This document shows, one piece after another, positions 624 to 36,824 of a DNA stretch of 38,156 nucleotides (position 1 is its first letter; each line of letters starts with the position of its first letter). The notes under the pieces were generated by a model. It saw only the letters and a list, made by a program, of their open reading frames with translations. It made no database searches and had not been told where the DNA came from. The stretch covers positions 1-38,156 of the forward strand of contig PDRW01000045.1 in the NCBI GenBank assembly GCA_002746935.1, in the 5' to 3' direction. The DNA comes from Rhodobacterales bacterium. GTDB lineage: Bacteria > Pseudomonadota > Alphaproteobacteria > Rhodobacterales > Rhodobacteraceae. A program made the translations under genes and the position numbers.

Positions 624-1616
<993 letters not shown>

Positions 1617-3764
1617 TCAAAGCGTGCAGGAAACGCAGCCTTGCACTTCCGTGCCCTCAAGGGCGGACTGGCGCAGGCGGACGTAGTAGATGGTCTTGAT
1701 GCCCTTCTTCCAGGCCAGGATCTGGGCGCGGTTGATGTCGCGCGTTGTCGCCTCGGCGGGGAAGAACAAGGTCAGCGACAGGCCCTGATCCACATGCTCG
1801 GTGGCGGCGGCATAGGTTTCGATCAGGGCTTCGGGGCCGATCTCGTAGGCATCGCGGTAATAGTCAAGGTTGTCGTTGCCCATGAAGGCCGCCGGGTAGT
1901 AGACGCGGCCGATCTTGCCCTCCTTGCGGATTTCGATCTTTGACACGATCGGATGGATCGACGAGGTGGAATTGTTGATGTAGCTGATCGACCCGGTGGG
2001 CGGGACGGCTTGCAGATTGCGGTTGTAGAGCCCGTCCTTCATCACCGCGCCCCGGAGCGCCGCCCAGTCTTCTCTGGTCGGAAGCGCGACCCCGAAACGC
2101 TCCATGAGCGCCGCGACGGTGTCGGTCTCCGGCAGCCAGTCGCGGTCGGTGTATTTGTCAAAGAAGCTGCCGTCGGCATATTTCGACGTCCCGAACCCGT
2201 GGAAGGCCGCGCCCTTCTCCCGCGCGATGGCGTTCGAGGCGCGGATCGCGTGATAGGCCACGGCAGCGAAGTAGACGCGGGTGAAATCAACCCCTTCGGG
2301 TGAGCCATAGTGGATGCGTTCGCGCGCGAGGAAGCCATGGAGGTTCATCTGCCCCAGCCCCACCGCATGCGTCTCGTCATTGCCGCGCCGGATCGACGGC
2401 ACGCTGTCGATTGCGGACATCTCCGACACGGCGGTCAGCGCACGGATCGCGCTTTCGACCGTGGCGCCGAAATCCGGGCCATCCATGGTCATGGCGATAT
2501 TGAGTGAGCCGAGGTTGCAGGAGATGTCGGTGCCGAGGTGTTTGTAGCTCAGGTCATCGTTGAATTCCGATGCCTCGTTGACCTGAAGGATTTCGGAGCA
2601 GAGGTTCGACATGGTGATGCGCCCCCTGATCGGGTTCGCGGCGTTCACCGTGTCTTCGAACATGATGTAGGGATAGCCGCTTTCGAACTGGATCTCGGCA
2701 AGCGTCTGGAAGAAATCCCGCGCGTTGATCTTCGATTTGCGGATGCGCTTGTCGTCGACCATCTCTTCGTATTTCCCGGTGACCGAGATCTCCGAGAACG
2801 GCACGCCGTAGACACGCTCCACGTCATGGGGCGAGAAGAGATACATCTCCTCGTTGCGCTTGGCCAGTTCGAAGGTGACATCCGGGATCACCACGCCGAG
2901 CGACAGCGTCTTGATGCGGATCTTCTCGTCGGCATTCTCGCGCTTGGTGTCCAGAAACCGCAGGATGTCGGGGTGATGGGCGTTGAGATACACCGCCCCC
3001 GCGCCCTGCCGGGCACCGAGCTGGTTGGCATAGGAGAAGCTGTCTTCAAGCAGTTTCATCACCGGGATCACGCCCGAAGACTGGTTTTCGATCCCCTTGA
3101 TCGGCGCGCCGTGCTCGCGGATGTTGGTGAGCATCAGGGCAACGCCACCACCGCGCTTGGAGAGTTGCAGCGAAGAATTGATGGCCCGGCCGATGCTCTC
3201 CATGTTGTCCTCGACCCGCAGGAGAAAGCAGGAGATCAGTTCGCCCCGCGATTTCTTGCCGGCATTCAGAAAGGTTGGCGTCGCCGGCTGAAAGCGGCCC
3301 GAGATGATCTCTTCCATGAAGGACATGGCAAGCCCTTCGTCCCCCCGCGCCAGAGCGAGCGCGGTCATGACCACGCGGTCTTCGTAACGCTCCAGATAGC
3401 GCTGCCCGTCGCGGGTCTTGAGCGTGTAGGATGTATAATATTTGAACGCCCCGAGAAAGGTCGGGAAGCGGAACTTTCTGGCATAGGCCGCATCCCAGAT
3501 CTTGTGCAGGAAAGCCTTCGAATACTGGTCGAGCACGTCTGCTTCGTAATATCCCTCATCGACGAGGTAACCGAGCTTCTCGTCGAGCGAGTGAAAGAAC
3601 ACCGTGTTCTGATTGACGTGTTGCAGGAAATACTGCCGCGCGGCCATGCGGTCGGCTTCGAAGCGGATGTTGCCGTCCTCGTCATAGAGGTTCAGCATCG
3701 CGTTCAGCGCGTGGTAATCGAGTGTTTCGTCGAGCGCCTCCGCCTTCAGGCCGGTATCGAGCAT
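1617..3764 (-). CDS. nrdE: ribonucleotide reductase class Ib alpha subunit
   Basis: 715-aa product with N-terminus [24 protein letters not shown]… and a C-terminal redox-active Cys pair (…GCVSCTL). It sits between nrdI and nrdF in the canonical nrdHIEF order. Confidence 0.95.
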
Positions 3765-4171
3765 GTCTGCCTCCAGAAAGTGTCAAGCCCTGCGCGCACG
3801 CGGGCGCAGTCATTGTCCGTGCCGGCCAGTTCGAACCGATAGAGCACGGGCACATTGCATTTCTTCGAGATGACCTCGCCCGCAAGGGCAAAGGTCGGGC
3901 CGAAATTGCGGTTACCGCCCGCGATCACGCCGCGCAGCAGCCCGCGGCGGTCAGGATCGTTGAGAAAGCGGATCACCTGTTTCGGAACCGCACCGCGTCC
4001 GTCGCCGTCGGCATAGGTCGGACAGATCAGCACGAAAGGGCCGGCGGGGCTGGGCATGGACCCGTCGGAGATCGGGATACGCAGCGCCGGAAGCCCGAGG
4101 CTCCCGACGAACCGCGCCGTGTTGCCCGAACGGGAGGAGAAATAGACGATTCTGGCTTCAGGCCCCGTCAC
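3746..4171 (-). CDS. nrdI: flavodoxin-like RNR class Ib maintenance protein
   Basis: 141-aa product with a FMN-binding N-terminal loop [15 protein letters not shown]. It overlaps the nrdE start by 19 nt. Confidence 0.9.
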
Positions 4172-4175
4172 CGGA

Positions 4176-4397
4176 TCAGGCCAGCCGGCCGATCAGGTCT
4201 GGCCGGAAACCCGCCCAGTGATCTTCGCCCGCAACCACAACGGGCACCTGCCGATACCCAAGCTCCGAAACATGGCTCAGGGCCCTGTCATCTTCGGTCA
4301 GGTCGATCACCTCGTAATCAAGCCCACGCGCCTCAAGCGCCCGGGTCGTGGCCGTACATTGGACGCAGGCCGGTTTGGAATACACAGTGATGCTCAT
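4176..4397 (-). CDS. nrdH: glutaredoxin-like electron donor for class Ib RNR
   Basis: 73-aa product [14 protein letters not shown]… with a CVQC redox motif. The start codon is the reverse complement of cat at 4395-4397. The ORF-track extension to 4685 is rejected because it would read through the riboswitch. Confidence 0.85.
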
Positions 4398-4439
4398 GGT
4401 CTCGTTCCCTTGACTGCCCTCTCTGCCGGAGGGGTGTTT

Positions 4440-4732
4440 CTGCCGTTTTTCCGGGGGCACAGGACACGACGCGGCCGCGCACAAGCTTGCCACGGACCAC
4501 ACACGCACCCCAAGGCCCACCGCCTCTGGTTGTCGTCTTCCGTCACGGCAGGTCTCCTGGCTCGCGGGTCGTCGCTCGGCTGGCCTTCCCGGGCCCCGAA
4601 AAGGTCGGGTTCCCAGTGACATGTTCAGCGTCGCTTTCCGCTCACAGTTGCGGGGGCAGCGCCGGAGTTGGAGGTGTCTCCGCACCGGCTTCCCTGTTGC
4701 CTTCCCGGGTTTCCCCGGAAAACCATGACCTC
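4440..4732 (-). promoter_or_regulatory. cobalamin (B12) riboswitch in the nrdHIEF leader (aptamer ~4546..4732, expression platform down to the RBS)
   Basis: Reverse complement reads GGTCATGGTTTTCCGGGGAAACCCGGGAAGGCAACAGGGAAGCCGGTGCGGAGACACCTCCAACTCCGGCGCTGCCCCCGCAACTGTGAGCGG…GTCACTGGGAACCCGACCTTTTCGGGGCCCGGGAAGGCCAGCCGAGCGACGACCCGCGAGCCAGGAGACCTGCCG. AGCCAGGAGACCTGCCG matches the B12-box consensus rAGYCMGgAgaCCkGCcd exactly. The AGGGAA…CGGTG…GCTG.CCCCGCAACTGTgAGCGG core and the GCCACTG-like GTCACTGGG…GGGAAGGC element are also present. Confidence 0.85.
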
Positions 4733-11930: not shown

Positions 11931-14900
11931 TCAGAACTTGCCGACCAGGTTCACGAACACGCCATGGCTGTCATATTCGATGTCGGTCAGGTCGTCCGAG
12001 ACATTGCCCCATTCGTAGCCGACACCAATCTTGGCATATTCGCCCAGGTGCCGGTACACGCCCAGAACCGCGCCGGTTTCGGTGGTATCGGTCTCGGGCG
12101 AGAACAGCACCCTGCCCTCACCGAAAATGTCCCACTCATGGACCACATGCCAGTCGGCACGGAGCGCCAGCAGCGCCGCGTCATTTTCGGTGAAGTCGTC
12201 GGTCCCACGGTCGGCGGTCTCCGCCATCCGGTAGCCGAGCTTGCCGCCGATCGTGATCTGCGGGTTCAGGTCGTAATTCGCATCGACCGAGAGCACATGG
12301 CTTTTCTGCTTCGGCCCGTTGCTGTTGCCATTGGCATCCACCTGGTCCTCGCCCGGAAGATCAATCAGCCGCGAGTACCTGAACAGCAGGTTGAGCCGTT
12401 CGTTGTCCACCGGCCGGTAGGCAAAGCCGAGATTGGCGCGCACATATTCGCCATCATGGTAATCGCCTTCGGCGCTGTCCGAGTAGAGCCCTTCGACATC
12501 CCCCAGAAGCGTCCAGTCGCGGTTCAGCGCGTTGCTGTAACCGGCGGAGAACATGTAGGTGTCGCGGTCGCGCGCGGTGCCGTCGCCGTCTTCGGTGCGG
12601 TATTCCAGCCGCAACCGGGCAGAGACCTCTTCGCTCGGCGACCAGGCGGCCCCGACCGAAGCCGCGATACGCTCGAAATCGCCGTCTTCCTTGTCGATCA
12701 CCTCGCCGTAGTCGAAGCTGCCCGAAAGGGTCCAGGCATTGCTGGGTGTATAGCTCACGCCGAAGGTGTTGGTCAGCGATTGCTGGCTCGCGCCCGGCAG
12801 ATCAAAAGCGCTTTCCCCGAAAAGGTTGACGCTTTCGGAAAGCTGGTAGCGCCCACCGGTGACGATCCGGCCCTTGTCGACCAGATCGCTGCCCGCGCCA
12901 TAGCGGGTCGGGTCGAGGGTGAAACCGATGTAGGCTTCACGCTCGGGGCTCGCGGCATAGGCAAGGCGCGCGTTCGCGGCTGCGCCCGACGTGCCGGTCG
13001 ACACCTCGCCGGTGGCGCGCAGCTTTTCGGTCAGCTGCGCTTCCACGCCCACGCCCACGCGGTGGTCGTTGTCCAGCCCGCCGCTGCGCTGAACCGTGAC
13101 CTGACCGAAGGTGTAGACCGTGAGGTCGTCGTTCGGATGCCAATCCACCCGCGCGCCGGCATCAAGCCGGGTGCCGGTCTCTTCAGGCTTGGCCGGGTCG
13201 GTCTTGTCGACATAGCTCGCCCCGACCCGCACGGACCACGCCTTCGAGAAGGCGTATTCGGCATGCGCGCCGACTTCGAGCTTTTCCTTGCCGCTGTCGG
13301 ACACGAAGCGTTCGCCGTCAGCGCCGATGCTCAGCCGGTCGGAAACATCGACCTCGACTTCTCCGCCAAACAGGTACTGGGTCTGATCAATGTCTTCGGA
13401 GACCGACCAGAACCCCGCCTCCTTGCGTTCGGCGTAGAATATGACATGGCCCGGAACCCCGATATTGGCATCTTCGAGGTCCACGAAACCGTCGAGCGCG
13501 TAGGCGTTGGCCGTGCCACTGTCGGCGCCGCCGGACGAAGTGATGGTCAGGCCGCCGTCGGTGGAGGTGGAGCGGGAAAACCCGGGGCCGGAGGTGCGGA
13601 CCGCCTCGACGGTGACATAGCTCTGGCGGCCGAATTCGTAGCGCGCATCAACCCCGGCAACGGTCTGCTCGCCCTGATCGGACTTTTCGCGCATACCCGT
13701 CGCGCCGATGCGCAGGTTGTTTGTCACCCAGGCTTCGGCCCGCCCGCCCAGCACGGTGTTGTCAGCGTCCATGTTGGTCGGGGTGTATTCGTATTGCACC
13801 ACCAGCGACTGGTCGAGACCGCCGGTCTGCGCCCCGGCAGGGCCGCTTGTGCCGGTGTACCACGACAGCGGTCGCGCCAGCGTGATCACGCCTTGCAGGT
13901 GGTCGATCGAATAATCCACCCCCTCCCTGAGCCGCACGCTGTCGACCACGCGCCCGGTGTCGCTGTCGGTAATCAGCACCTGCACATTGGTCGACCCGCC
14001 GGTGATGTCCTGACGCGACAGGAAATAGACCGACCCGCCGGTGCCGCGCAGCACATCGCGCTGCGCCATCGTGTCCGGCTGGGCGGCATAGAGCGTGGCG
14101 CTGAGGCGCGGATCACCGTTTTCGGTGACAGTCGCCGACTGATAGCGAACCTCGGCACCGTAAAGGTTACGCGCTGCGCTGATCAGGTTCGGACTGGTGA
14201 TCCCGGTCTCGAAATCGCCCCAGGTCACACGGGTGGTTTCGTTTTCGGCACGGAAATAGAAGGCCCCCGCGGTCGGGGTGTCGTCATACCAGGTCGAGTT
14301 GTCGCCGTAGGTCGGGTAAACGTCATCGGAATTGCGCAGCCGGTCGAGCACCCGGCGCGGATCCTTGTCGTTCAGACGGTCGAAAAGCTCGTCGATCGGG
14401 CCTTCCTGGCTGTCCACGCCTGCGGTGATCCGCCATCCGCTCTGGGTCTCGCCCTTGGCGTAGAAGGCAGCGCGGGCATCGACATAGCCCTCGTCCTCCA
14501 GCCCGCTGGTGCCGCCGAACCGGTAGCCTGCGGTGATGTCGATGATCCCGGTGGAGAACCATTCCGACGTCGGAATCTCGACATCGCGCACGAATTGCCG
14601 TCCGCCGGCCTTGACCGCGACCACATGGTCGCCGGCGGGCAGGATGCGGCTGACGACGAACTTGCCGGAGGCGTCCACCGGCACGGTCTCGCCCATCACC
14701 GATACCGTACCGCCCGGCGTACCGCGCCCGGCGACGGTGATCGTGCCGCCGCTGAGCGGGATCCGGCGGACGCGCAGGCGGCTTTCGCCCTCGCCCGCCG
14801 CGACCAGCGGCCCGCCGACGGTCTCGTGGCTGGCGAAATGTTCCGCCGTGCGGGTGAGCGTGAGCGGCAGGGTCTCGTCATAGCGCCCCCTGGCATCATA

Positions 14901-15533
14901 GACCCGGAGCGCATAGGCATAATCCCCTTCGCCGCCGGCCGGCATTTTCCACCGCACCTGACCGTTGGCCCGCGTCGGCAGCACCGCCACCGCCGGGTGC
15001 CCGGGTTCGGACAGATCGAGGATCCGCACTTCGGCGCGGCGGATGAAGCTCGGATAGTTTGCCGACGCCCGGAAGGTCACCGTCTCGCCCGCCTGGTAGG
15101 CGGCGCGCAGATCGGCGGTGGCAACGTTGAGCAGACGCGCCCCGCCCAGCCCGTCAAACCGCACGTCGAGCTTTGCCCGGGCGAGCGCAATGTCGGCACT
15201 GCGCTCGGGGTTGTAGGGCGGCAGCGCCCCGGCGAAGTGGGCGTTGTCCACCGAGATCGCAAAGCCGGTCTGGGCGAACTGCCCTCCCGGGGGGGCCTGC
15301 ACCGCTTCGGTGTTGGCGCCCACGGGCAGATCCACCGCAACCCCGGCATTGGCGTGCTGGCAGCCCGGCGCCAGCGGGATCGCCGCGGGGTCGCAACCGA
15401 CCCCCTGCGCGAGGCCCGCGAGTGGCAGCATGGATGCAGCCAGTCCGGCGAGTGCGGTGCTCCTGAGCAGCGCCCCATGGCGGGCGGCGGGCCTGGCGGG
15501 TTTCTTAATCGTCAACATGCTACGCTCCATCAT
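11931..15533 (-). CDS. large outer-membrane beta-barrel protein (1200 aa) with N-terminal periplasmic/Ig-like region; translationally coupled to upstream giant adhesin gene
   Basis: Start ATGATG at 15533/15530 has a GAGGG RBS 7 nt upstream and overlaps the upstream TGA (ATGA). Signal peptide MLTIKKPARPAARHGALLRSTALAGLAASMLPLAGLAQG is followed by a Cys pair and a prealbumin/Ig-like segment (…TITVAGRGTPGGTVSVMGETVPVDASGKFVV…). About 850 aa of amphipathic beta-strand periodicity then end in …HGVFVNLVGKF, the OMP beta-signal with terminal Phe. The opposite-strand 1350-aa ORF is low-complexity antisense. Confidence 0.8.
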   Translation of the reverse strand: MMERSMLTIKKPARPAARHGALLRSTALAGLAASMLPLAGLAQGVGCDPAAIPLAPGCQHANAGVAVDLPVGANTEAVQAPPGGQFAQTGFAISVDNAHFAGALPPYNPERSADIALARAKLDVRFDGLGGARLLNVATADLRAAYQAGETVTFRASANYPSFIRRAEVRILDLSEPGHPAVAVLPTRANGQVRWKMPAGGEGDYAYALRVYDARGRYDETLPLTLTRTAEHFASHETVGGPLVAAGEGESRLRVRRIPLSGGTITVAGRGTPGGTVSVMGETVPVDASGKFVVSRILPAGDHVVAVKAGGRQFVRDVEIPTSEWFSTGIIDITAGYRFGGTSGLEDEGYVDARAAFYAKGETQSGWRITAGVDSQEGPIDELFDRLNDKDPRRVLDRLRNSDDVYPTYGDNSTWYDDTPTAGAFYFRAENETTRVTWGDFETGITSPNLISAARNLYGAEVRYQSATVTENGDPRLSATLYAAQPDTMAQRDVLRGTGGSVYFLSRQDITGGSTNVQVLITDSDTGRVVDSVRLREGVDYSIDHLQGVITLARPLSWYTGTSGPAGAQTGGLDQSLVVQYEYTPTNMDADNTVLGGRAEAWVTNNLRIGATGMREKSDQGEQTVAGVDARYEFGRQSYVTVEAVRTSGPGFSRSTSTDGGLTITSSGGADSGTANAYALDGFVDLEDANIGVPGHVIFYAERKEAGFWSVSEDIDQTQYLFGGEVEVDVSDRLSIGADGERFVSDSGKEKLEVGAHAEYAFSKAWSVRVGASYVDKTDPAKPEETGTRLDAGARVDWHPNDDLTVYTFGQVTVQRSGGLDNDHRVGVGVEAQLTEKLRATGEVSTGTSGAAANARLAYAASPEREAYIGFTLDPTRYGAGSDLVDKGRIVTGGRYQLSESVNLFGESAFDLPGASQQSLTNTFGVSYTPSNAWTLSGSFDYGEVIDKEDGDFERIAASVGAAWSPSEEVSARLRLEYRTEDGDGTARDRDTYMFSAGYSNALNRDWTLLGDVEGLYSDSAEGDYHDGEYVRANLGFAYRPVDNERLNLLFRYSRLIDLPGEDQVDANGNSNGPKQKSHVLSVDANYDLNPQITIGGKLGYRMAETADRGTDDFTENDAALLALRADWHVVHEWDIFGEGRVLFSPETDTTETGAVLGVYRHLGEYAKIGVGYEWGNVSDDLTDIEYDSHGVFVNLVGKF

Positions 15534-18500
15534 TGCCCGGCCCTCACGATCGTGGTTTCGATCCGAAGCTGGGTGCGGCCCGCCTTGCGCCACTCGGCGC
15601 GTATGCGGTCTTCGACCAGTTTCATCAGCGCCCTGCCCTCGGTCACAGCTTCGGGCCCGGCCGTCGCCGGCAGATGCCAGGCGAGGCGCAGCACGATCGG
15701 CTCACCGGCAAGCGCCGGCACCATCCGGCGGATGCCGTTGTCCAGCGCCTGGCCGATGGCCATCTGGCCGTCGGCCCCCCTGGTGAAGGCGGCGCGGTTG
15801 AGGTCCACCCGCACGACCTTGCCGATGCTCGCACCGAAGTTGATCTCCGCCATCACGCCCGGGGTCAGCCGCACGACGCGCGGGTTTTCCGTGGTCGGGC
15901 GGTAGCCTGCGGGCAGGGTGCGCTCGTCAAGCTTGATGATGAAGTTCGAGCCACGGTCTGCCGGCAGCGCCGCGCAGGGCACCGAGTAGAGGCCGTTTTC
16001 GTCCGTGGTCACCACGGTGCCGTCCGGCGACACCAGCCGCACCCCCGGGATGCCGCGCTCGACCAGCGGTTCCGGCGTGCGGGCGAGCTTGCCCTTGCCG
16101 CCGCCATAATGCTGATCGGTGATACCTTCGGACCCGGAGCCGCCCGGCGGATCCTGGTAGCCGTTGCCGTTGTGGTCTTCGAACACCTTGCCGATCACGT
16201 CGGAGCAGTCGAACACCGCTTCCGGCAGGATCCGCACATCGGCGGTCGCCTCACCCACCAGCAGATCGTCGGTGTTGGCATCGAAAACCGAGACCGAGTT
16301 GGTGTGAACGCCGGAACGTGCGCCGTTGAGAACACGGGCGTCGATGCCCAGGGTCAGCGTCGTCTCGGCGGGAAGGATGACATCCTCCCAGGTGACCACC
16401 AGCCCCTCGACCGTGACCGTTACCGACGCGCCGTCGATCGTGGCGCTGGCCGGATCGGCCAGGAAATGGCCGGGCAGCGTGTCCACCACATCCACCGGAC
16501 CGACGACGAAGTCATTGTCGTTGGTCACGGTGATCGTGTAGGGCACCGTCTCCCCGCGCCGGACAATATCGGCCGGCGTGGTCTTGGTGAGCGTCAGATT
16601 GTCAGCCGTCGAGGTCTCCGTGAACACGAAACGCGTCGGGTCGTCTTCGGTGTTGCCATCGGTGTCGATGCCGTTGTCGGACAGATCCGAAATCGGCTCC
16701 GGTTCTCCCGGAACGCCCGGCACGAACACCGGCAGCGCCTCCGCCAGAACCTGGTTTTCGATCCCGCCGGAATTCACCGCCTGCACGGTAACGGTGATCG
16801 AGGCCGTGTAGGTCGCCATTTCACCGATCTGAAGCGCACCTTCCGCCGAGCCCATGCTGGCGCTGACAAAGTCCGGGCCAGAGGCAAGCGTCAGGGCGTT
16901 GCCGTTGAGGTCGACCGCGGTATCCGTCAGCTGCACGTCCTCCAGCGGCGTGTTGCCGGTGTTCTCGACCGTGATCGTGTAGTCGATCCGGTCACCGGCA
17001 TCGTGGCGGCCGTCGCCGTTGACGTCGACATAGGTCTGGGTCTTGGTCGCTTCGATCCCCGGCAGCGCCGCCTGCACCACGGTTTCGACCGCGGTATCGC
17101 ACAGCGTCGGGATGGCCTGCGAGCAGATCTGATACTCGACCGTATGCGGACCCGCCGGATAGCCCGGCGCCAGCGTGATGAGCGCCGTGCCCGGATCGAG
17201 GGTCACGCCCGGATCGGCGTTGAGCACCGTGATGGTCACATTGCCAAGCGTCGCCGGGCCGTTGTTGAGCAGATCCGAGTCCAGCATCGAGGTGGTTGTG
17301 CCACCATCGGTGGTGAACGGCGGGAAGGTCTCCGGGTTTGCGTCGATCGAGCCGACCTGAACCGTCTCGCTGTCGTTGTCGGTGACCTCTTCACCGGGGT
17401 TCGGGCCCCAGGTGCCGGTCACGCTGGCGTTGTTGACCACCTGATTGGCGAGCACATCCGCCTGGGTCACCGTATAGGTGGCCGTGTAGGTTGTGCTGTC
17501 GACATCGCCCGGGTTCATCACCGGGATCGGCCCGCCGTTCAGCACGATATTGGGCAGAAGATCGGTGACCGTGACATTGGTCAGGATCATGTTGCCGGTG
17601 TTGGTGACGGTGAAGCTGTAGGGGATCACGTCACCCGGAACCGCGCCGTTGGGCAGGCCGGAGGTGTCGGCCACCTTGTCGAGCTCGATCGCCGGCACCT
17701 GGGCAATCGGCACCACTGTCGGGGTGTCGTTGTCATTGGCGGTGCCGCTGTCGTCGGTCACCGGGTTGCCCCCCGGATCGTCGCCGCTCACCGTGGCCTG
17801 GTTGGTCACCTGACCGGCGATGATGTCGGCCTGGGTGAGCGTGTAGGTCGCGGTAAAGGTGGTGCTGTCGACCGCCCCCGGCACCAGCGAGGGAATCGGG
17901 CCGCCGCTGATCTGGATGTTCGGCAGGGTGTCGGTCAGCGTCACGTTGGTGAGCAACACGTTGCCGGTGTTGGTCACGGTGAAGCCATAGCTGATCACAT
18001 CGCCCGCCTGCGCCGGCGTGCCAAGCGCCGATGTGTCGGCGGTCTTCACCAGCGCGATGGCCGGACCTTGCACGATCGACGTGACCAGCGGCGTGTCGTT
18101 GTCATTGGCCGTGCCGCTCACGTCGGTGACATCGGTGCCGAACGGGTCGGTACCGGTCACGGTGGCAGAGTTGGTCACCTGGCCGGCGTTGAGATCGTCC
18201 TGGGTGATCGCATAGCTGCCGGTGAAGGTGGTGCTGTCGACGGCACCCGGAGCAAGCGTGGCAATCGGACCGCCGTTGAGCGTCATCCCGGGCAGGCTGT
18301 CGGCCAGGGTGATGCCCGTCAGCGTCACCGGGCCGGTGTTGGTCACGGTGAAGCCATAGGTGATCACGTCGCCGACGGCCACCGGGTTCGAGAGCCCCGA
18401 GATGTCGGAGGTCTTGATCAGCGCAATGGCGGGCGCAACGTTGTGGCTCACCGGGGTCGGGTCGTTTTCACCGTTTTCATTGGCCTGACCGTTGTTGTTG

Positions 18501-21500
18501 GGGTCCGGATTGGTGCCGTTGTCCGACTGGTCGGCAAGCTGCGGGTTGGTGGCCGAGGTCTGGCCGGACCACTGCCCTGTCGCATCGACCACGGCCTGGT
18601 TCTCGTAGTTCGCGGGCACAGATGTCGGCTTCACGCGGATTGTGAAGGCCAGGTTGCAGCTGCCCGAGATGCCGAGATTGAAGCCGGTGGCGACAACCGT
18701 ATTGCCTGCGCCGTTGAAACCAGCATTGAGGCCGCCACAGCTGCCCGAGGGTGCCGCGACGATCGCATAGGTGCCGTTGGCCAGCGGATCGGTGGCCGGG
18801 TTCCCCGGGGTGGCGAGGGTGCCGAACAGCGGAGCGGCCCCGGCGATCTGGTCGGTCACCGCGATATTGGTGAGCGGTTCCTGGCTGAAGTTTTCAACCA
18901 CCAGACCGAAGGTCACATTGAACGACCCGTCGTCATTCGCCGTCACCGCGCCCGACACCTGCTTGGCGATGCCGACACGGGCCTGCGAGATGAGCGCGAA
19001 GTCGTAGTCGACGCCGTCGTCGTCTTTCGGCACGTTGATCGTGCTGATCGTGGTGTTGTTCGTACGGTTACCGCCAAGATTGAGCGGGTTCGACGTCGGA
19101 CCGGTGGTGAGGTATGCGACATCCGGCACGGAGGACGGAATGACCTGGAGCCTCACCGTATAGGTGCCTTCCGGCAGGTAGTCGAAACTGTAGTCGCCGC
19201 TGGCATCGGTGGTGATGGTGCGGGAAACGGGGTTGCCGTTCAGATCCGTACCGTTCAGCGTGACCTGAACGCCCACAACACCGCTGTCGTTGTTGTTCAT
19301 CACCTCGTCTTCCGCGAAGTCGCGGAACACCGAGCCCGAGAGCGACGAGGAAACCACCTGCACCGTGGCGGTATCGGTATTGTCGCTCTCGTCGACATCG
19401 AAGCTTTCGGTCGAGACGGTCGCCGAGTTGGTGCGGCTGTAGGGATCGGCATTGGCGGCAGTCACGCGCACCGGCACGGTGATATTGATCTGGCTGCTCG
19501 CGTCGACGGTGCCAAACTCACAGTTGAACGACGTGCCTCCCGCGGCACCGGTGCAGCTGTTCTGGCTGGCATTACCGCTGGCCACCACAGCCGTGGGCGC
19601 GCCGGTCAGCACCATGTTGGCGGGCAGGCTGTCGGCCACCGAAACCACTTCGGCCTCGGCCGTGCCGCCAGCGGGAGCCGCGACAGTCACCCCGATGGTG
19701 AAGTTGAAGTCTTCCCGCAGCCCGACAGGCGCCGTCGGTCCGGTCTTGGTGAGCGAAATGTTGGTGCGGGTCCGCAGCGTGGTATCCGCCGAGGCATTGT
19801 TGTTGAGCAGGTTGCTCTCCCAGCCCTGGTCGGTCTCGTCGGACTTGACCGACACGTTGTTGACCGCCGTTCCCTTGGCCAGGCCACGCATGGTCAGGGT
19901 CACCTGTTCGGAGGAATTCGCCTTGATGAAGGGCCAGGTGCATTCCAGCGTGCCGCCAACGTCGCCGACCGCCGGAACCGTGCCGCAGCTCACGGGGCTG
20001 TTGTTCGAGGTCGCCGTGAAACTCTGATAGCTCAGCAGCGAGGGCGGCAGAGTATCGGTCATCACCACGTTTTCAGAGGTCGAGGGGCCGTTGTTGCGCA
20101 CCGTCACCGTATAGGTGACGTCGCCACCGACCGCGACCGGATCAATGTTGTCGGTCTTGTTGACCAGCAGATCGACCACCGGACGCTGAACCGGCACCGT
20201 GACCGCCGCGTTGTTGTTGGTGGGATCAATGTCGGTTGTGGTGGTGGTAATCGCGGCATTGTTGGTGATGTCGGTGCCGCGGGTGGCGTTGGTCGGCTGC
20301 ACCACGATGGTCACGGTCTTCTGGGCACCGTTGTTGATGCTGCCCATGTCGCAGGTCAGCGTCCTGTTGGCCGCGGTGGTCACCGTGTTTGCGGTGATCC
20401 CGGAGCAGCTGCCGCCGGGGGCATTGGCCGAAACGAACAGCACGTCCAGCGGCAGCTCATCGGTGATGGTCACACCGTCCGCCCGGCTGAGGCCGTTGGC
20501 AAGGTTGCTCGCGGCAACGACGTAGGTCAGGTTCTGGCCAGCGGCAACCGGGCTGGGGTTGGCGGTCTTGGTCGCCCGTATGTCGGCCCGCGCCTCAAGC
20601 GTGTAGTTCGCAACGTTGGTGTTATTGTTCAGGTCCGGGTCGGGCACATTGCCCGAATAGGCGTTGGCCCGGTTGTAATACGAACCGCCATTGCCGCCGG
20701 GGCGCACCTGGAAGGTGATGACCGGACAATCGTTGCCCTGAGTACAGACCGGCAGCGTCGGGATCGTGCAGACCAGATTCCGCCCGTTGGGATTGAGAGG
20801 CGAGGTCGAACAATTGGAGTCCGTGAAGGTATTGGCCGCGTTTCCGGCAACCGAGAGCGAGACGAAGCCCGGGTTCGGTCCGCTCGCCTGGTCGTTGATC
20901 AGGAAGCGGACCAGGTCACGCACCTGGACGTTGGTCGAGACGGCAGGGCCGTCGTTGACGACTTCGATCGTGTAGGTCAGCAACTCGCCCGCCGCAACCG
21001 TGGTGGGGTTCGCCGATTTGAGCGGATAGATGTCGGCCGAAGCTGCCGGCGTGCCGGAGGTCGAGGTGTGGGTGATGGTGTTGTTCGGCAGGATCGCAAC
21101 ATCTTCGGGGATATTGGAATCCGGCGAGCTGACGTGCAGCTGGTTGGCGATCGTGCCGGCCGCCGTCGCCGTGGTGGTGAAGGTCACCGAGGGCGTGGTG
21201 GCATTGGGCGGCAGCGGCGCGGCCTGGGTATAGACGCGCGTACAGGTCACCTGAATCGGACCCGCACCGCTGGTGGGATTGCAGGTCCAGCCGTTCGCGT
21301 TGACGATACCGTCGAGTGTGAGCCCGGCGGGGATCGTGTCGACCATCTCGATGGTGCCCCAGAACGCGGCATTGCCGATGTTCGAGGTCGAGATCGAGTA
21401 CTCATAGCCGCTGTTGCCCTCCACCATGAGCGGCGGATTAGGGCCGGTCTTGTTGGCGCGCAGATCGACCACCGGCTCGGCGATGGTGACAAGACCGTCG

Positions 21501-22780
21501 CTGTCGCTGTTGTTGGCCGGGTTCTGATCGGTCGGGCCGGTCGAGGAAACCGTGACGGTGTTCTGGGCATTGCCCGCACCCACGACGGTCGCTTCGACAA
21601 TGACATTGCCAAGGCTGGTGTTGTTGCCCGCACCCGACGGGTCGGGGCGGGTGCAGCTCACCTCCTGCCCGGAGGTCGTGCAGGTCCAGCCGCCCTCGAT
21701 GACATTGTCGATCTGGTAGTTGCCCGGAATCGTATCGTTGAGCGTGAGCCCGCTGGGCGCATCGCCGGTGTATCTGGGCGCAAGGGTGAAGGTCACCGTA
21801 TCGCCCACCAGCAGGTTGCCGGTGTTCGGGCTGCGACTCTTGCTGACCGCCACGTCGGTTCCCTCGGTGACGTCCAGAGTGCCGGTGGCGGTGTTGTTGT
21901 CGGCATTCGGGTCGGGCGGGTTCTGGTTGATGACACTCGCCGAGGCGGTGATGTCAGACCCGCCGATCGCGGCGACCTGGCCGGTGAAGGTGCGGGTGAC
22001 GGAGGCGCCAACCGGGATCGAACCGGGAATGTTGCAGTTCCAGGTGCCACCGCTCAGGCTGCATCCGGCGGGCGCCGACATGTTGGTGATGCCGGTGGGC
22101 GCAGGGAAGGAAATGGTGAAGCCGTCGCTGGGGTGCGGGCCGTTGTTGGTCGCCGTCCAGACGAAATCGACCATGCTGCCGGCGGCAGCGGAAGAAGGGA
22201 TCGTGAGATCAAGCTGAATTTCCGCACCCCGCGTCAAGGTGGTGGTTTCGAGGTCGGAATTGTTGCCGGTGTTGGTCTCGACACCGGCAACCGTCGCCAC
22301 CTCGGCACCGACCTGAATCGAGCCCTCGATGTCGCTGGTCACCTGGACGACCGGCGTGATGTTTTCGTCGGCGGCCAGGGGCGGCACGGTGCAGGTCACG
22401 GTCAGCGGACCGGCGCCGGTGGTGGGCGCGCAATTCGTCAGCGGCGCGCTGACACCGACCAGAGAGGCGTTGGCGGGCACGTCGAAGGTCAACTGCGTTG
22501 CAGGCGCGCCCTGCGTGCCCGCGTTGGTGATCCGCAGGGTGTAGTCGATCACCCCGCCTGCCGCGTAGGTTACTCCGCCGTTCTCGCCGTCTTCGATGGC
22601 AAGCAGCCAGTCCACATTCTGAGCCCGCGCCTGGCCGGCACCCGACAGCACCCCGAGACAGAGCGCGAAGGTGAGAACCAGAAAACGCGCAAGAAAACCA
22701 AAACGCCGCACGGAAACCGTCCGGGGCTCAATATCACCATTCCACATCACAAGACCGCCTGTTTGCATTTGCCGCCGCAT
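15530..22780 (-). CDS. giant secreted surface/adhesin-like protein (2416 aa): Sec signal peptide, multiple DUF11-type 'conserved repeat domains', two SdrD-B/Cna-B-type domains, unique C-terminal ~110-aa domain
   Basis: N-terminal signal peptide …[31 protein letters not shown]. More than 10 diverged ~120-aa repeats carry …DVI.[16 protein letters not shown].LP… motifs, including three near-identical tandem copies. Cna-B-like segments read …[43 protein letters not shown]… and …[24 protein letters not shown]…. The protein is Thr/Asn/Gly/Val rich. The start is uncertain (ATG at 22780, or ATG at 22747 preceded by AGGCGG). The 2522-aa plus-strand ORF over the same DNA is an antisense artefact. Confidence 0.85.
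   Translation of the reverse strand: [2416 protein letters not shown]
17360..18440. repeat. three tandem ~369-bp (123-codon) near-identical repeats inside the adhesin gene
   Basis: Period measured between gtcgttgtcattggc landmarks at ~17728 and ~18097. Protein copies are [10 protein letters not shown]…/[10 protein letters not shown]…/[10 protein letters not shown]…, each carrying …FTVTNTGN…GAVDSTTFT…. Confidence 0.75.
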
Positions 22781-23240
22781 ATTGCGGGCATCCTGACTGA
22801 TTCTATTTCCGTTTCCTATTCATTTTCCAAGCGATTTTTTCCAATTGGTGAACAAAACAAGGGGCAATCGTCGCGTCGTTGCCACACCGGCATCAGCCAG
22901 CACGGCGTTATCCACAGGCAAGGTTCCGCCGGGCCGCAAATTCCGCAGATTCTCTCACACCGCCACCTCTTCTCCCGCACCGCCACCTCCGCCCGGCCGA
23001 CAGCGGTTCGCGGACCGGCCGGACGGATCCAAATGCCACGGGCACCCCCCTTGCCGGTCCGGTTTCACCGGATTCCCTGGCCCCGATTTCTCCAAAACTG
23101 ACCGATCCGGGCGTGAAATGACCACAATCCGCACCGACAAGACCGGCAACGCGAAACGCACCGGCAGGATTGACACGCTGCCGGACCGGAGGGGAAAACC
23201 GGGCAGGGTTTGCAAAAGGCATTCGGGCAGGAAAGCAGCA
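22781..23240. promoter_or_regulatory. 460-bp divergent intergenic control region (adhesin operon leftwards, C-PCP-TE gene rightwards) with AT-rich island 22800-22860
   Basis: The only markedly AT-rich stretch in the window (gattctatttccgtttcctattcattttccaagcgattttttccaattggtgaacaaaacaa). On the minus strand it contains TAGAAT, and on the plus strand TTGACA at 23170-23175 with a poor -10. No precise sites could be assigned. Confidence 0.3.
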
Positions 23241-25778
23241 ATGAACGACATGAAGGTGTCAGGCTCAGACAACGTCGTCGCGACCTTCCCGGCGTCGATC
23301 ACCCAGAAACGCACCTGGTTCATGGAGCAGATCCACCCCGGCGACCGGGGCCTGATCATCGCGCTGCACTGGGAATTGCGCGGGTCCGTCACCAGTGATG
23401 CGGTGGAACGTGCCTTCCAGACGATCACCGACCGTCACGAGGTCTTCCGCACCCGGTTTCGCGAACGCGACGGCGAACCGGTGCAGGAGGTGCTGGCGCA
23501 TGTGGATTTCAGGCTCGCCCGGCTCGATCTGCGCAATGTGCCGGAGGCCGACCGCGCCCGCAAGATCAGCGAGATCGCCAGCGAACATGCCGGGGAACCC
23601 TTCGACATGGGGCGTGCCGGGCTGATCCGGGTGGCGATGGTCCAGACCGGACCCGACCGCGCCGCGCTGCTGATCGCGGTGCACAACAGCGTGTTTGACG
23701 GCTATTCCATCGGCGTGCTGGGGCACGAGCTCGGCACCCTGCTGGAGGCGGAAGCAAGCGGCCAGCCCGCCGAACTGCCGGAACTGGCGCTGCAATACGG
23801 CGATTTCGCCATGTGGCAGGCCGATTACGCCGCCAGCGGCGCCTTTGCCGGGGAAGAGGCCTATTGGGCGCAAAAGCTCGGCGGCATGGCCTGTTTCGAG
23901 ATCCCGCCCGACCGGCCGCGCAGCCCCGGGCCTACCGAAAGCCGCAACTACGCCCGCGATCTGCCGGCGGATTTCGAGCCCCGCCTGGCCGGGACGGCAA
24001 AGGCGCTCGAAACCTCGCTGTTCACCCTCGGCACCACAGCCTTCGCGGTTGCCCTCGAACGCTTCACCGGACGGCGCGACGTGAGCTTCGCAATCCAGGC
24101 CGCGGGCCGGAACGAGGTGGACCTCGAACCGCTGATCGGCATCTTCACCAATCCGATGGTGCTGCGCTTCGACATCGACCCGGAGGCCCCGCTCTCGGAC
24201 CATGCCCGGGCGGCGCGCGACATCATCAATGGCGCCCTCGCCCACCAGATGCTGCCCTTCGACAGGGTGGTGCAGGTGCTCAACCCGCCGCGCGACCCGC
24301 TGCGGATCCCGCTGGTGTCGATCATGTTCGGCCTGCAACCCGGCTTCCTGAAGACCCGCCGCTATGGTGCGATCGAACTGGTTCCGGAAATCTCGGATGT
24401 GCCCGGCACGCTCTACGATCTCAATGTCAACATTGCCGGGCACAAGACCGGCTGGCGGCTGGTGATCGACTACAACGCCAGGCTGTTCGACGAAGCGACG
24501 ATTGCGCGGTTTGCGGCGCTGCTGGTCGAGGTGCTCGACAGCCTGATGCACCACGCGGAGAGGCCGGTCGGCACGCTCCGGGCGGAGACGGAGCCCCGAC
24601 CGGAGGCCCGACCTGAGACTGCCGCCGGGGAAGCCCCGCTTGCGGTGGCGCCTTCAGAGGCGGCAGAGGAGGGAACCGCCGAAGGGGCAGCCACGATCGA
24701 AAGCCTGCGCGCGATCTGGTCCGATGTGCTCGCCATCCCGGCCGACAGTGCCACGGGCAATTTCTTCGACCTCGGGGGCCATTCGATCCTTGCGCTGCGG
24801 ATGCTGGCGATGGTCGCCGAAAGTTTCGGCCAGCGCCCGTCGATCCAGGCCTTCCTCGCCGACCCGACCCTTGAAGGACTGGCCGGCGTGCTCAACCCGC
24901 CCGCGCCCTCCCCTGCCCCGCAGACCGGCCCGGCGGCGGCGCCCGATACCGCCCCGAACCCGATCTGGGATCTCACCGAGCTGCGGGCGTCTTCGGCCGA
25001 CGCACCGGTGCTGATCGCCGTCAATCAGCCGTTCATGTTCCACGCCCTGGCGCGCGAGATGGTTGCCGATTGCGCCGTGGCGAGCCTGAGCGTTCCCGGC
25101 GCGGCAGAATTGCAGGCGCTCGAACAGGCCGGGCTCGATAAGGCGATCGAGGCCGCTCTCGCCCCGGTGCTTGCCCGCTACGCCGGGCGGCCGCTGATGT
25201 TTTGCGGCCTCTGCGTCGACGGGCTCGTCGCCCTCCGCCTCGCCCAGCGCCTGCGCGACGAGGGGCAGAACACCGCCCTCGTGGCGATGATCGACAGCTG
25301 GGCGCCCGGGTCCAGCCGGGCGTTTTCGCGGCTGCGCAAGAGCCTCGATCGCTGGCACATCCGCTTCCGGCGGATCGGCTATTATCTCGGGCTCCGGCGT
25401 CAGGGCGAGATCGGCTGGACCGATGTGCTGCGCCAGAACGATCTTGCCGCCGGGATCATCGCCCGGCTCACCGGGGTGCCCGCGAAAAACGAGACCGAGA
25501 CGCTGGTCGATGACACCGTCGAGGTGCTGGTCGGCCTGACCCGGGGCTATCGCTTCGCCCCCTATGATGGCGAGGTGGTGCTGTTCATCACCCGCTCGCA
25601 GGCGATGGTGCCGAAGGACGGCGTGCTTGGCTGGTCGGGCCTGCTGGCGGCGGATGTGACCGCCTATCCGGTCAACGGCTGGCATGGCGACGCACTGATG
25701 CGCAGCGGGTTCGAGCGGATCATCGGCGTGCTGGACGTGAAGGCACAGAGACTGCGCCGCGCCACGCCGCCGGGGTGA
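23241..25778 (+). CDS. stand-alone NRPS protein: condensation domain (variant HNxxxDG) - PCP - thioesterase (Cys nucleophile)
   Basis: 845-aa product. AGGAAAG RBS precedes ATG 23241, and an in-frame alternative ATG lies at 23118. C-domain motifs include …LIAVHNSVFDGYS…. The PCP reads …FFDLGGHSILALRM…. The alpha/beta-hydrolase TE reads …MFCGLCVDGLVALRLAQRL…IDSWAP…GWHGD…, aligning to GxSxG with Cys at the nucleophile position. Confidence 0.85.
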   Translation: MNDMKVSGSDNVVATFPASITQKRTWFMEQIHPGDRGLIIALHWELRGSVTSDAVERAFQTITDRHEVFRTRFRERDGEPVQEVLAHVDFRLARLDLRNVPEADRARKISEIASEHAGEPFDMGRAGLIRVAMVQTGPDRAALLIAVHNSVFDGYSIGVLGHELGTLLEAEASGQPAELPELALQYGDFAMWQADYAASGAFAGEEAYWAQKLGGMACFEIPPDRPRSPGPTESRNYARDLPADFEPRLAGTAKALETSLFTLGTTAFAVALERFTGRRDVSFAIQAAGRNEVDLEPLIGIFTNPMVLRFDIDPEAPLSDHARAARDIINGALAHQMLPFDRVVQVLNPPRDPLRIPLVSIMFGLQPGFLKTRRYGAIELVPEISDVPGTLYDLNVNIAGHKTGWRLVIDYNARLFDEATIARFAALLVEVLDSLMHHAERPVGTLRAETEPRPEARPETAAGEAPLAVAPSEAAEEGTAEGAATIESLRAIWSDVLAIPADSATGNFFDLGGHSILALRMLAMVAESFGQRPSIQAFLADPTLEGLAGVLNPPAPSPAPQTGPAAAPDTAPNPIWDLTELRASSADAPVLIAVNQPFMFHALAREMVADCAVASLSVPGAAELQALEQAGLDKAIEAALAPVLARYAGRPLMFCGLCVDGLVALRLAQRLRDEGQNTALVAMIDSWAPGSSRAFSRLRKSLDRWHIRFRRIGYYLGLRRQGEIGWTDVLRQNDLAAGIIARLTGVPAKNETETLVDDTVEVLVGLTRGYRFAPYDGEVVLFITRSQAMVPKDGVLGWSGLLAADVTAYPVNGWHGDALMRSGFERIIGVLDVKAQRLRRATPPG

Positions 25779-25801: not shown

Positions 25802-25839
25802 AAAAGCCCCGCCCCGCTGACTTCGGGGGGCGGGGTTTT
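25802..25839. terminator. bidirectional intrinsic terminator (AAAA-gccccgcccc-loop-ggggcggggc-TTTT)
   Basis: 9-bp GC stem flanked by an A4 run on one side and a T4 run on the other. It lies between the convergent stop codons at 25778 (+) and 25842 (-). Confidence 0.7.
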
Positions 25840-36125: not shown

Positions 36126-36824
36126 GTGTTTGATATCGGGCTTCACCTCTGGCTGCTCGACCCTTCGGACCATCTGTTGCCGGACCTCCGACGGCTGCTG
36201 TCGGAAGACGAGCGCGCCCGCGCCGCGCGGTTTGTCCGTCCGCTTGACCGTGACCGCTACATCACCGGACGGGCGCGGCTTCGCCAGATCCTTGCGGCCG
36301 CAACCGGTCGCGACCCGCGCGCCCTTCGCTTCAGTTACGGTGCCCACGGCAAACCCGCGCTCAAGGGGGGGCCTGCGTTCAACCTCAGCCATAGCGGACC
36401 GCTTGCCGCGCTGGCGATCGGCCCTGCGGCCACGCCCGCGATCGGGATCGGGATCGACATCGAACGGATCCGCCCGATCGAAGCCGCCGTTGCGCGGCGG
36501 CATTTCTCGCCAGCGGAACATGCAGCCCTCGGCCAGATGCCCGCCGCCGACTGGCTCACCGGGTTCTATCGCTGCTGGACCCGCAAGGAAGCCCTCGTCA
36601 AGGCGCAGGGAACCGGCCTGTCGATGCCGCTCGACAGTTTCGACGTTTCCCTGACAGACAACGCCCGGCTCGAGCGGATCGACGGTGACAGCCCCGGCAA
36701 CTGGCGAATGATCCATTTCAACCCCGCGCCCGGCTGGGTGGGGGCGGTTGCGGCGCGCACCGGCGGGCAGGAGATCGCTTTGAGCCTGCGCGAGACCGGC
36801 ACGCCGCCCCTGCCCTTCGGCTAG
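36126..36824 (+). CDS. Sfp-type 4'-phosphopantetheinyl transferase
   Basis: 232-aa product from GTG 36126, preceded by an AGGAGG RBS 5 nt upstream. Motifs include FNLSHSG, GIGIDIE and WTRKEALVKAQG. It is divergent from the megasynthase promoter. The ORF-track start at 35841 would lie inside the divergent promoter and give an implausibly long product. Confidence 0.8.
   Translation: MFDIGLHLWLLDPSDHLLPDLRRLLSEDERARAARFVRPLDRDRYITGRARLRQILAAATGRDPRALRFSYGAHGKPALKGGPAFNLSHSGPLAALAIGPAATPAIGIGIDIERIRPIEAAVARRHFSPAEHAALGQMPAADWLTGFYRCWTRKEALVKAQGTGLSMPLDSFDVSLTDNARLERIDGDSPGNWRMIHFNPAPGWVGAVAARTGGQEIALSLRETGTPPLPFG

Follow-up and report, generated by a model that had tools for sequence, protein, structure and literature searches.

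Positions 1 to 38,156 of contig PDRW01000045.1 from a Rhodobacterales bacterium (assembly GCA_002746935.1), the 38,156-nucleotide stretch that we call the window, contain the gene of an 845-residue nonribosomal peptide synthetase (NRPS) protein made of a condensation (C) domain, a peptidyl carrier protein (PCP) and a thioesterase (TE), hereafter C-PCP-TE, in which both catalytic domains deviate from their textbook motifs. Comparison with homologs and solved structures indicates that the two odd residues, an Asn in the C domain and a Cys in the TE, belong to the gene family in its entirety and to a large clade of Cys TEs, and are not signs of β-lactone or β-lactam chemistry. We propose, with confidence that is evenly balanced, that C-PCP-TE serves in trans as the terminating module of an orphan assembly line of three genes, combining a trans-loaded PCP, a condensation independent of the classical His, transfer of the chain to Cys658 and release by hydrolysis or aminolysis. 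The assembly line itself is conserved across Rhodobacteraceae, Rhizobiaceae and relatives.

Analysis of the 845-residue protein with Pfam revealed a Condensation domain (aa 15-446, 3.7e-79) that matches the PF00668 profile near its full length (profile positions 4-444 of 456), followed by PP-binding (488-550, 4.7e-14) and Thioesterase (599-713, 2e-08) domains, and detected no AMP-binding domain. The stand-alone C-PCP-TE architecture called in an earlier, sequence-only reading of this DNA was thereby confirmed; NCBIfam returned partial matches to large NRPSs only. NCBI annotates the gene as a 'hypothetical protein' of 886 residues (PIE06574.1) starting 41 codons upstream (window 23118-23240), and the shorter start retained here is favoured by the orthologs and by an AGGAAAG that resembles a ribosome-binding site. 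AlphaFold2 (AF2) models were obtained for the full-length protein (predicted local distance difference test, pLDDT, 87.7) and for the TE alone (pLDDT 94.1, predicted template modelling score, pTM, 0.91).

A scan of one genome per species yielded 80 loci with an ortholog, among them Ruegeria, Sulfitobacter, Rhizobium tropici, R. lusitanum, Agrobacterium albertimagni, Nitratireductor and Chelativorans; the orthologs span families in at least two alphaproteobacterial orders. Nearly all 80 loci hold the same trio, a hybrid of NRPS and polyketide synthase (PKS), C-PCP-TE and an Sfp-type phosphopantetheinyl transferase (PPTase), and all three are present in the window. The hybrid usually lies directly upstream of C-PCP-TE in the same direction; in the window the two genes are convergent, whereas they are co-directional in most relatives. 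No TE was found in the hybrid, which is therefore taken as the upstream partner of C-PCP-TE, the carrier of the sole TE of the cluster. A conserved roseobacter cluster of NRPS, PKS, PPTase and 'glycosyltransferase' genes, whose product is uncharacterised, has been described in 28 of 57 genomes (PMC4337385), the NRPS/type I PKS hybrids of Rhodobacteraceae still had no MIBiG match in 2023 (PMC10584327), and our literature searches found no characterised product of the cluster. The gene called 'glycosyltransferase' in the literature encodes about 520 residues with a GINT1_N-like domain at the C-terminal end, and it lies directly 3' of C-PCP-TE in 56 of the 80 loci (for instance 12510-14069 in locus L001). 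A tblastn search found no match to this fourth gene anywhere in the window, and it may lie elsewhere in the metagenome-assembled genome, of which the window is one entire contig. In the Ruegeria/Sulfitobacter group, a secreted protein that weakly resembles glycoside hydrolases is also encoded at this place, next to C-PCP-TE; the window has none.

The second A (adenylation) domain of the hybrid, A2, carries the code DILQLGVIWK in the window and DILQLG[MVL]IWK in 72 of 74 loci when read at motif-anchored positions, which we take to be a glycine code according to Stachelhaus. The code of the first A domain, A1, varies by lineage, being DLWWGGGVFK in the window (aa ~150-560) and DA[FL]FLG[AV]VFK in Rhizobium, with still other codes elsewhere. 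As A1 differs between lineages, the products of the cluster family are probably a set of congeners with different first residues.

The closest PDB sequence matches of the C domain are the LCL-type TycC6 and DhbF, together with Txo1/2. A phmmer search against PDB chains aligned 'liavHNsvfDGys' to 'lftdmHHsisDGvs' of TycC6, 'lltmHHivsDGws' of Txo1 and 'lllmHHmivDGws' of DhbF, and these pairings to solved structures bring Asn149 (AAC, 23685-23687) exactly into line with the second His of HHxxxDG. The window C domain thus reads HNSVFDG, as the sequence-only reading had noticed, while the C domain of the adjacent hybrid synthetase, which serves as an internal control, has a canonical HHIVCDG. Alignment to the defined C subtypes supports an LCL-like domain: the dehydrating C_modAA type (AmbE 7r9x, 3e-16), X-domain, DCL, E and Cy types all match far worse and were rejected.

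The residue found at the second-His position varies widely within the family. Among the 80 orthologs and the window protein it is Gln in 51, His in 14, Asn in 13 and Tyr in 3. Outside these counts, the protein P0032 has an Arg there. His148, Asp153, Gly154, the Arg65-His66-Glu67 triplet, Arg290 and Asn304 are invariant in the ortholog C domains. The C domain is also the best-conserved region of the protein, with a mean pairwise identity of 54%, rising to 61% around the C3 motif, against 47% for the PCP and 29-38% for the TE. It is therefore under strong selection, though its textbook catalytic residue varies among hydrogen-bonding side chains. A neighbour-joining tree shows several independent changes of the second His: the Rhodobacteraceae half probably started from HH together with Asp and shows one change to Asn (in the clade of the window) and one to Tyr, and Gln prevails in the Rhizobiaceae/Nitratireductor half, with apparent reversions to His. 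The exchange of His for Asn is one state of a labile position (Q/H/N/Y) and not a peculiarity of the window gene. The non-His states were seen in the A-less family, and the A-containing relatives, checked by eye, have HH. A literature search for HN/HQxxxDG motifs found nothing.

The pairing of HN[SA][VI]FDG with a GLCVDG elbow in the TE recurs in about 30 database homologs. In the genome scan, the first motif is present in 12 further loci and the second in 11 of these 12, the sequence of L009 being cut before the TE. A sequencing error or a pseudogene was ruled out by this conservation of both motifs in homologs and other genomes.

The history of the module bears on how its PCP is loaded. Sister proteins of 900-930 residues possess an AMP-binding_C domain (A_sub, PF13193) between C and PCP, in which the A10 catalytic Lys is replaced by Ala, Gly or Glu. 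Because they keep this dead A_sub remnant, the family must descend from a C-A-PCP-TE protein that lost its A core. The attachment Ser of the PCP is nearly invariant in the orthologs; with this Ser kept and the A domain gone, the PCP must be charged or fed from elsewhere, most likely by charging in trans. Precedents for PCP charging in trans include AmbE T2 and the yersiniabactin synthetase. For an A-less terminal C-T-TE, charging in trans is documented in SyrE (PMC8949500).

The main alternative to condensation is a different function of the C domain, taken on after the loss of the A domain; although we judge it unlikely, it accounts for several of these observations. The domain would be non-condensing and would act in docking and chain transfer, handing the chain from the last PCP of the hybrid to its own holo-PCP and on to the TE Cys in an all-thioester relay that adds no residue. 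Such a role fits the freedom of the catalytic second His, alone, to vary amid invariant structural motif residues, the occurrence of the non-His states in the A-less family when the relatives with an A domain and the hybrid have HH, and the fact that the conserved cluster encodes no PCP-charging enzyme. Non-condensing C-like domains without the His pair do exist, one of them being the teicoplanin X-domain. Another is HtmB2-CT (PDB 8z0q), a special terminal C domain in which RPWGIFDG replaces HHxxxDG so that both His are gone, and which, scoring 1.8e-48 against the window protein (motif aligned within aa 128-194), is a fairly close relative; a literature search for the code 8Z0Q found no paper. 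However, we know of no C domain that catalyses PCP-to-PCP transthioesterification, and if the TE could load directly from the PCP of the hybrid, there would be no need for an additional one. Moreover, HH is kept in 14 of the 80 orthologs, the replacements (Asn, Gln and Tyr) are all hydrogen-bonding, which suggests that the position is still functional, and the degree of conservation around the active-site motif argues for catalysis.

Turning to the TE, 'mfcGlCvDGlva' was aligned to 'yllGySlGGtla' of EntF and 'flgGwCfGGaia' of AB3403, which locates Cys658 (TGC, 25212-25214) at the nucleophile position and Asp660 at the last Gly of GxSxG. The elbow, GLCVDG, hence departs from GxSxG twice, by a Cys for the Ser and by an Asp for the last Gly. 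Likewise, 'miDsWaP' pairs with 'llDtWpP' of EntF and brings Asp685 onto the EntF triad Asp, and 'nGwHgd' pairs with 'caHvd' of EntF and 'pGdHss' of AB3403, bringing His815 onto the triad His. The AF2 models locate Cys658 at the turn that links strand 652-657 to helix 659-673; Asp685 immediately follows strand 678-684, and His815 comes behind strand 807-811. A type I TE fold (PF00975) with canonical triad positions is supported by Pfam, AF2, Foldseek and the EntF/AB3403 alignment. The TE-family alignment shows no variation at Cys658, Asp685 or His815 and holds no alternative Ser nucleophile. With Asn149 in the true HHxxxDG register as well, the placement of both motifs and of the downstream Asp and His in the sequence-only reading holds.

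Wherever the TE region is present among the 80 orthologs and the window protein, the nucleophile is a Cys, and the residue two positions further (Nu+2) is Asn in 42, Asp in 25, His in 11 and Ala in 1, with no Gly. The eleven loci with a GxCVHG elbow (L059, L061, L066-L068, L070-L074 and L078) form a sub-clade in which the Nu+2 His is present in 11/11 and the catalytic His after β8 is kept in 6/11, an Arg, Thr or Asn standing there otherwise. In this sub-clade the general base may have moved to the nucleophile elbow, in which case the side chain at Nu+2, that of Asp660 in the window protein, would reach the active site. A distinct termination solution could be imagined from these features, in which a C domain without the canonical His, working by chain transfer or by His-independent condensation, is joined to a Cys TE that uses its Nu+2 side chain (Asp, Asn in Rhizobiaceae, or His in a third clade), and we consider it improbable.

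A phmmer scan with the TE domain collected 948 representatives at E <= 1e-3, and the motif columns were read by hmmalign in the best 150 (P0121-P0269). The nucleophile is a Cys in about 115 of these 150 and a Ser in 28. Cys TEs dominate the neighbourhood of the query and so are not rare in sequence space, contrary to what had been assumed in the sequence-only reading. Within the same 150, a Gly is found at Nu+2 in 27/28 Ser TEs versus 21/115 Cys TEs (Fisher p = 5e-15, kinship not corrected), the non-Gly residues of the Cys TEs being Asp, Ala, Asn, Ser, His, Tyr and others. Compared with the PDB, the TE family profile has AB3403 as its best match (5e-22), over the full length and with Cys, Asp and His all aligned. 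The window TE shows the features of an AB3403-like clade, namely a Cys nucleophile, an Asp after β6 (xDxWxP) and the His of PGxH after the last strand.

The sequence-only reading had linked the Cys nucleophile to the strained-ring release of ObiF and SulM, which would yield a four-membered β-lactone or β-lactam. The Cys shared with both enzymes (PMC11298585) and the β-amino group that the assembly line installs via its aminotransferase domain could speak for this type of TE, yet we regard it as very improbable. Enzymes of the ObiF/SulM type combine the Cys with an Asp moved to the loop after β7, called position II, and in SulM the elbow is moreover Gln-Cys-Asn and the pocket positively charged (PMC11298585, PMC6668435); ObiF has a Gly at position I (PMC6668435). 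In the window TE, by contrast, the invariant Asp685 occupies the EntF/AB3403 position, that is, position I, and the elbow is Leu-Cys-Val. The TE family profile matches ObiF at 2e-6 in the N-terminal third only and does not match SulM at E <= 0.01. Foldseek with the TE model ranked EntF, Pks13 and AB3403 at the top (probability 1.00), with both ObiF and SulM outside the top 50. The Gly code of the upstream A domain argues against a β-hydroxyl or a β-amino/sulfamate nucleophile on the C-terminal residue, as Gly has no β-nucleophile; the β-amine is carried by the residue before the Gly module, so that its attack on the terminal thioester would give a ring of at least seven members, not four. Cys TEs are also known to carry out ordinary chemistry, such as macrolactamisation by the polymyxin TE and indole N-acylation by BulbE (PMC11792885). 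The idea of a strained-ring TE was rejected because of where the Asp lies, the sequence of the elbow, the order of the profile and Foldseek matches and the Gly module upstream, and release as a four-membered ring seems unlikely. The domain call, both registers and the Cys-Asp-His triad of the sequence-only reading stand, its strained-ring inference is not supported, although the module may still offload its chain in an unusual manner. The idea that the module is decayed, with a dead C domain, a dead TE or both and a chain released by other means, fits its two non-canonical catalytic motifs, its missing A domain and its annotation as a hypothetical protein, but is hardly credible for an intact open reading frame (ORF) that 80 genomes of different species keep beside its partner genes, with Cys, Asp, His and PCP Ser invariant or nearly so, the strongest constraint of any region in its C domain, and the sole TE of the cluster.

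In the in-trans termination that we favour, the hybrid would build an X-(β-amino, two-carbon extended)-Gly-S-PCP chain, X varying between genomes. An aminoacyl group would be put on the A-less PCP in trans, the simplest case being Gly from the adjacent A domain, and the LCL-type C domain would join the chain to this PCP-bound residue without a classical second His. Orienting the acceptor amine, the task of that His, would fall to Asn in the window protein and to Gln, His or Tyr among the orthologs. The peptidyl chain would then be transferred to Cys658 as a thioester acyl-enzyme and released by hydrolysis or, through attack by one of its own free amines, as a medium-ring lactam. Both the higher reactivity of the thioester intermediate and the polar side chain at Nu+2 would be adaptations at the level of the family.

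Several points weigh against this mechanism. First, mutation of the second His to Ala abolishes activity in several studied C domains, and a fully active C domain with HN or HQ would have to be considered unproven. Secondly, the lability of the second His seems to have begun only in the A-less lineage, which would fit a non-condensing C domain equally well. Thirdly, a spare A domain, a SyrC-like shuttle and an MbtH are all missing from the conserved cluster, and the enzyme that would charge the PCP is only presumed. Finally, the inter-domain arrangement of the AF2 model is uncertain (pTM 0.61), and the release chemistry, with an uncharacterised product, is a guess.

As far as could be found, no earlier description brings together an A-less module, a C domain that is highly conserved but labile at the second His, and a TE whose nucleophile is invariably a Cys in an elbow without Gly at Nu+2. 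Few biosynthetic gene clusters are as widespread in roseobacters and rhizobia as this one, and Asn149, Cys658, Asp660 and the loading of the PCP are concrete handles for finding its product. The family also constitutes a natural test of the need for the second His of HHxxxDG in condensation and of what a Cys nucleophile buys a thioesterase. A caution follows for annotation: as Cys dominates among the closest TEs, 'Cys TE' is not a marker of β-lactone or β-lactam chemistry.

Table 1. Coordinates of C-PCP-TE, of its domains and catalytic residues and of the adjacent features in the window, with examples of the A_sub remnant in sister proteins.
Feature	Position	Strand	Remarks
C-PCP-TE gene, 845 aa	23241..25778	+	ORF from ATG 23241 to TGA 25778; AGGAAAG before the ATG
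Condensation domain, aa 15-446, LCL-like	23283..24578	+	Pfam; core motifs intact except second His
C3 motif H148-N149-S-V-F-D153-G154	23682..23702	+	Asn at the second, classically catalytic, His position
Ala/Glu/Pro low-complexity linker, 41 aa	24579..24701	+	At the usual place of the A domain; AF2 pLDDT <50
PCP domain, aa 488-550	24702..24890	+	Phosphopantetheine-attachment Ser515 in DLGGHS, codon 24783-24785
Type I thioesterase domain, aa 575-845	24963..25775	+	Alpha/beta hydrolase, helical lid ~aa 691-767
Nucleophile elbow G656-L-C658-V-D660-G661	25206..25223	+	Cys nucleophile, Asp at Nu+2
Catalytic Asp685 (IDSWAP)	25293..25295	+	Directly after the β6-equivalent strand ('position I'), as in EntF/AB3403
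Catalytic His815 (GWHGD)	25683..25685	+	After the last strand
G+C-rich hairpin between the convergent genes	25803..25839	.	A4/U4 flanks; -37.4 kcal/mol, z = -3.3
Hybrid NRPS-PKS, 3314 aa	25842..35786	-	A-PCP-KS-AT-ACP-aminotransferase (class III)-C-A-PCP
Sfp-type PPTase	36126..36824	+	ORF open from 35841; likely start GTG 36126 after AGGAGG
Vestigial A_sub, examples	P0043 aa 471-539; L061, L066, L068, L078		

The hairpin between C-PCP-TE and the hybrid is probably a bidirectional intrinsic terminator; a simple terminator scan, for which its run of 4 T is too short, did not list it. Further away, the window encodes a secreted repeat protein of 2416 residues (15530-22780, minus strand) with a signal-like N-terminus and many 'TNTGNxxLT'-type repeats, the antisense strand of which holds a longer, spurious ORF (2522 aa) typical of high-GC DNA. 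A class Ib ribonucleotide reductase (RNR) operon is located at 624-4685 (minus strand) and comprises the small subunit (624-1601), the large subunit with RNR_N (1617-3764) and a candidate NrdH-like glutaredoxin (4176-4685); the class Ib RNR genes have no counterparts in the related loci. Membership of the cluster was rejected for the 2416-residue repeat protein, an outer membrane protein (OMP)-like protein, an aldehyde dehydrogenase (ALDH) and a PALP enzyme, none of which has a counterpart in any related locus.

Among known systems, the MycA/ItuA-type hybrids of the iturin family follow a KS-(AT)-ACP-AMT-C-A-PCP logic that likewise puts a β-amino group before peptide extension. The iturin enzymes start with a fatty-acyl ligase and continue with multimodular NRPSs that have Ser TEs, whereas the window hybrid has an amino-acid A domain as its starter, after which no more than one or two residues are added.

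Module 9 of the syringomycin synthetase SyrE, an A-less terminal C-T-TE with a carrier charged in trans (PMC8949500), is the best functional precedent for the architecture of the window protein. Unlike C-PCP-TE, this module is fused to the end of a nine-module protein and served by the dedicated SyrB1 (A-T) and the SyrC shuttle, and no SyrB1/SyrC-like genes were found in this cluster. The C motif of SyrE is canonical, and its TE(s) use Ser. Like the window TE, the ObiF and SulM enzymes are type I NRPS thioesterases with a Cys nucleophile, but they differ by their Asp at position II where the window Asp is at position I with an L-C-V-D elbow.

The cluster itself has the same gene set and taxa as the Roseobacter four-gene cluster (Martens et al., in PMC4337385), of which the window gene is the small 'NRPS'; the window copy differs by its missing fourth gene and by a C-PCP-TE that is convergent with the hybrid instead of downstream of it. 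For the TE, the comparison of choice is AB3403 (ABBFA_003403 from A. baumannii, PDB 4ZXH/4ZXI), whose A domain held glycine in the crystal (PMC10510592). This protein is a full C-A-PCP-TE that has a canonical HHxxxDG and a GWCFGG elbow, hence a Gly at Nu+2, whereas the window protein has no A domain, HN in place of HH and an Asp at Nu+2, at a TE identity of ~19-20%. Both proteins nevertheless share the Cys nucleophile, the Asp after β6 and the PGxH His, and AB3403, too, is the terminal module of an uncharacterised pathway.

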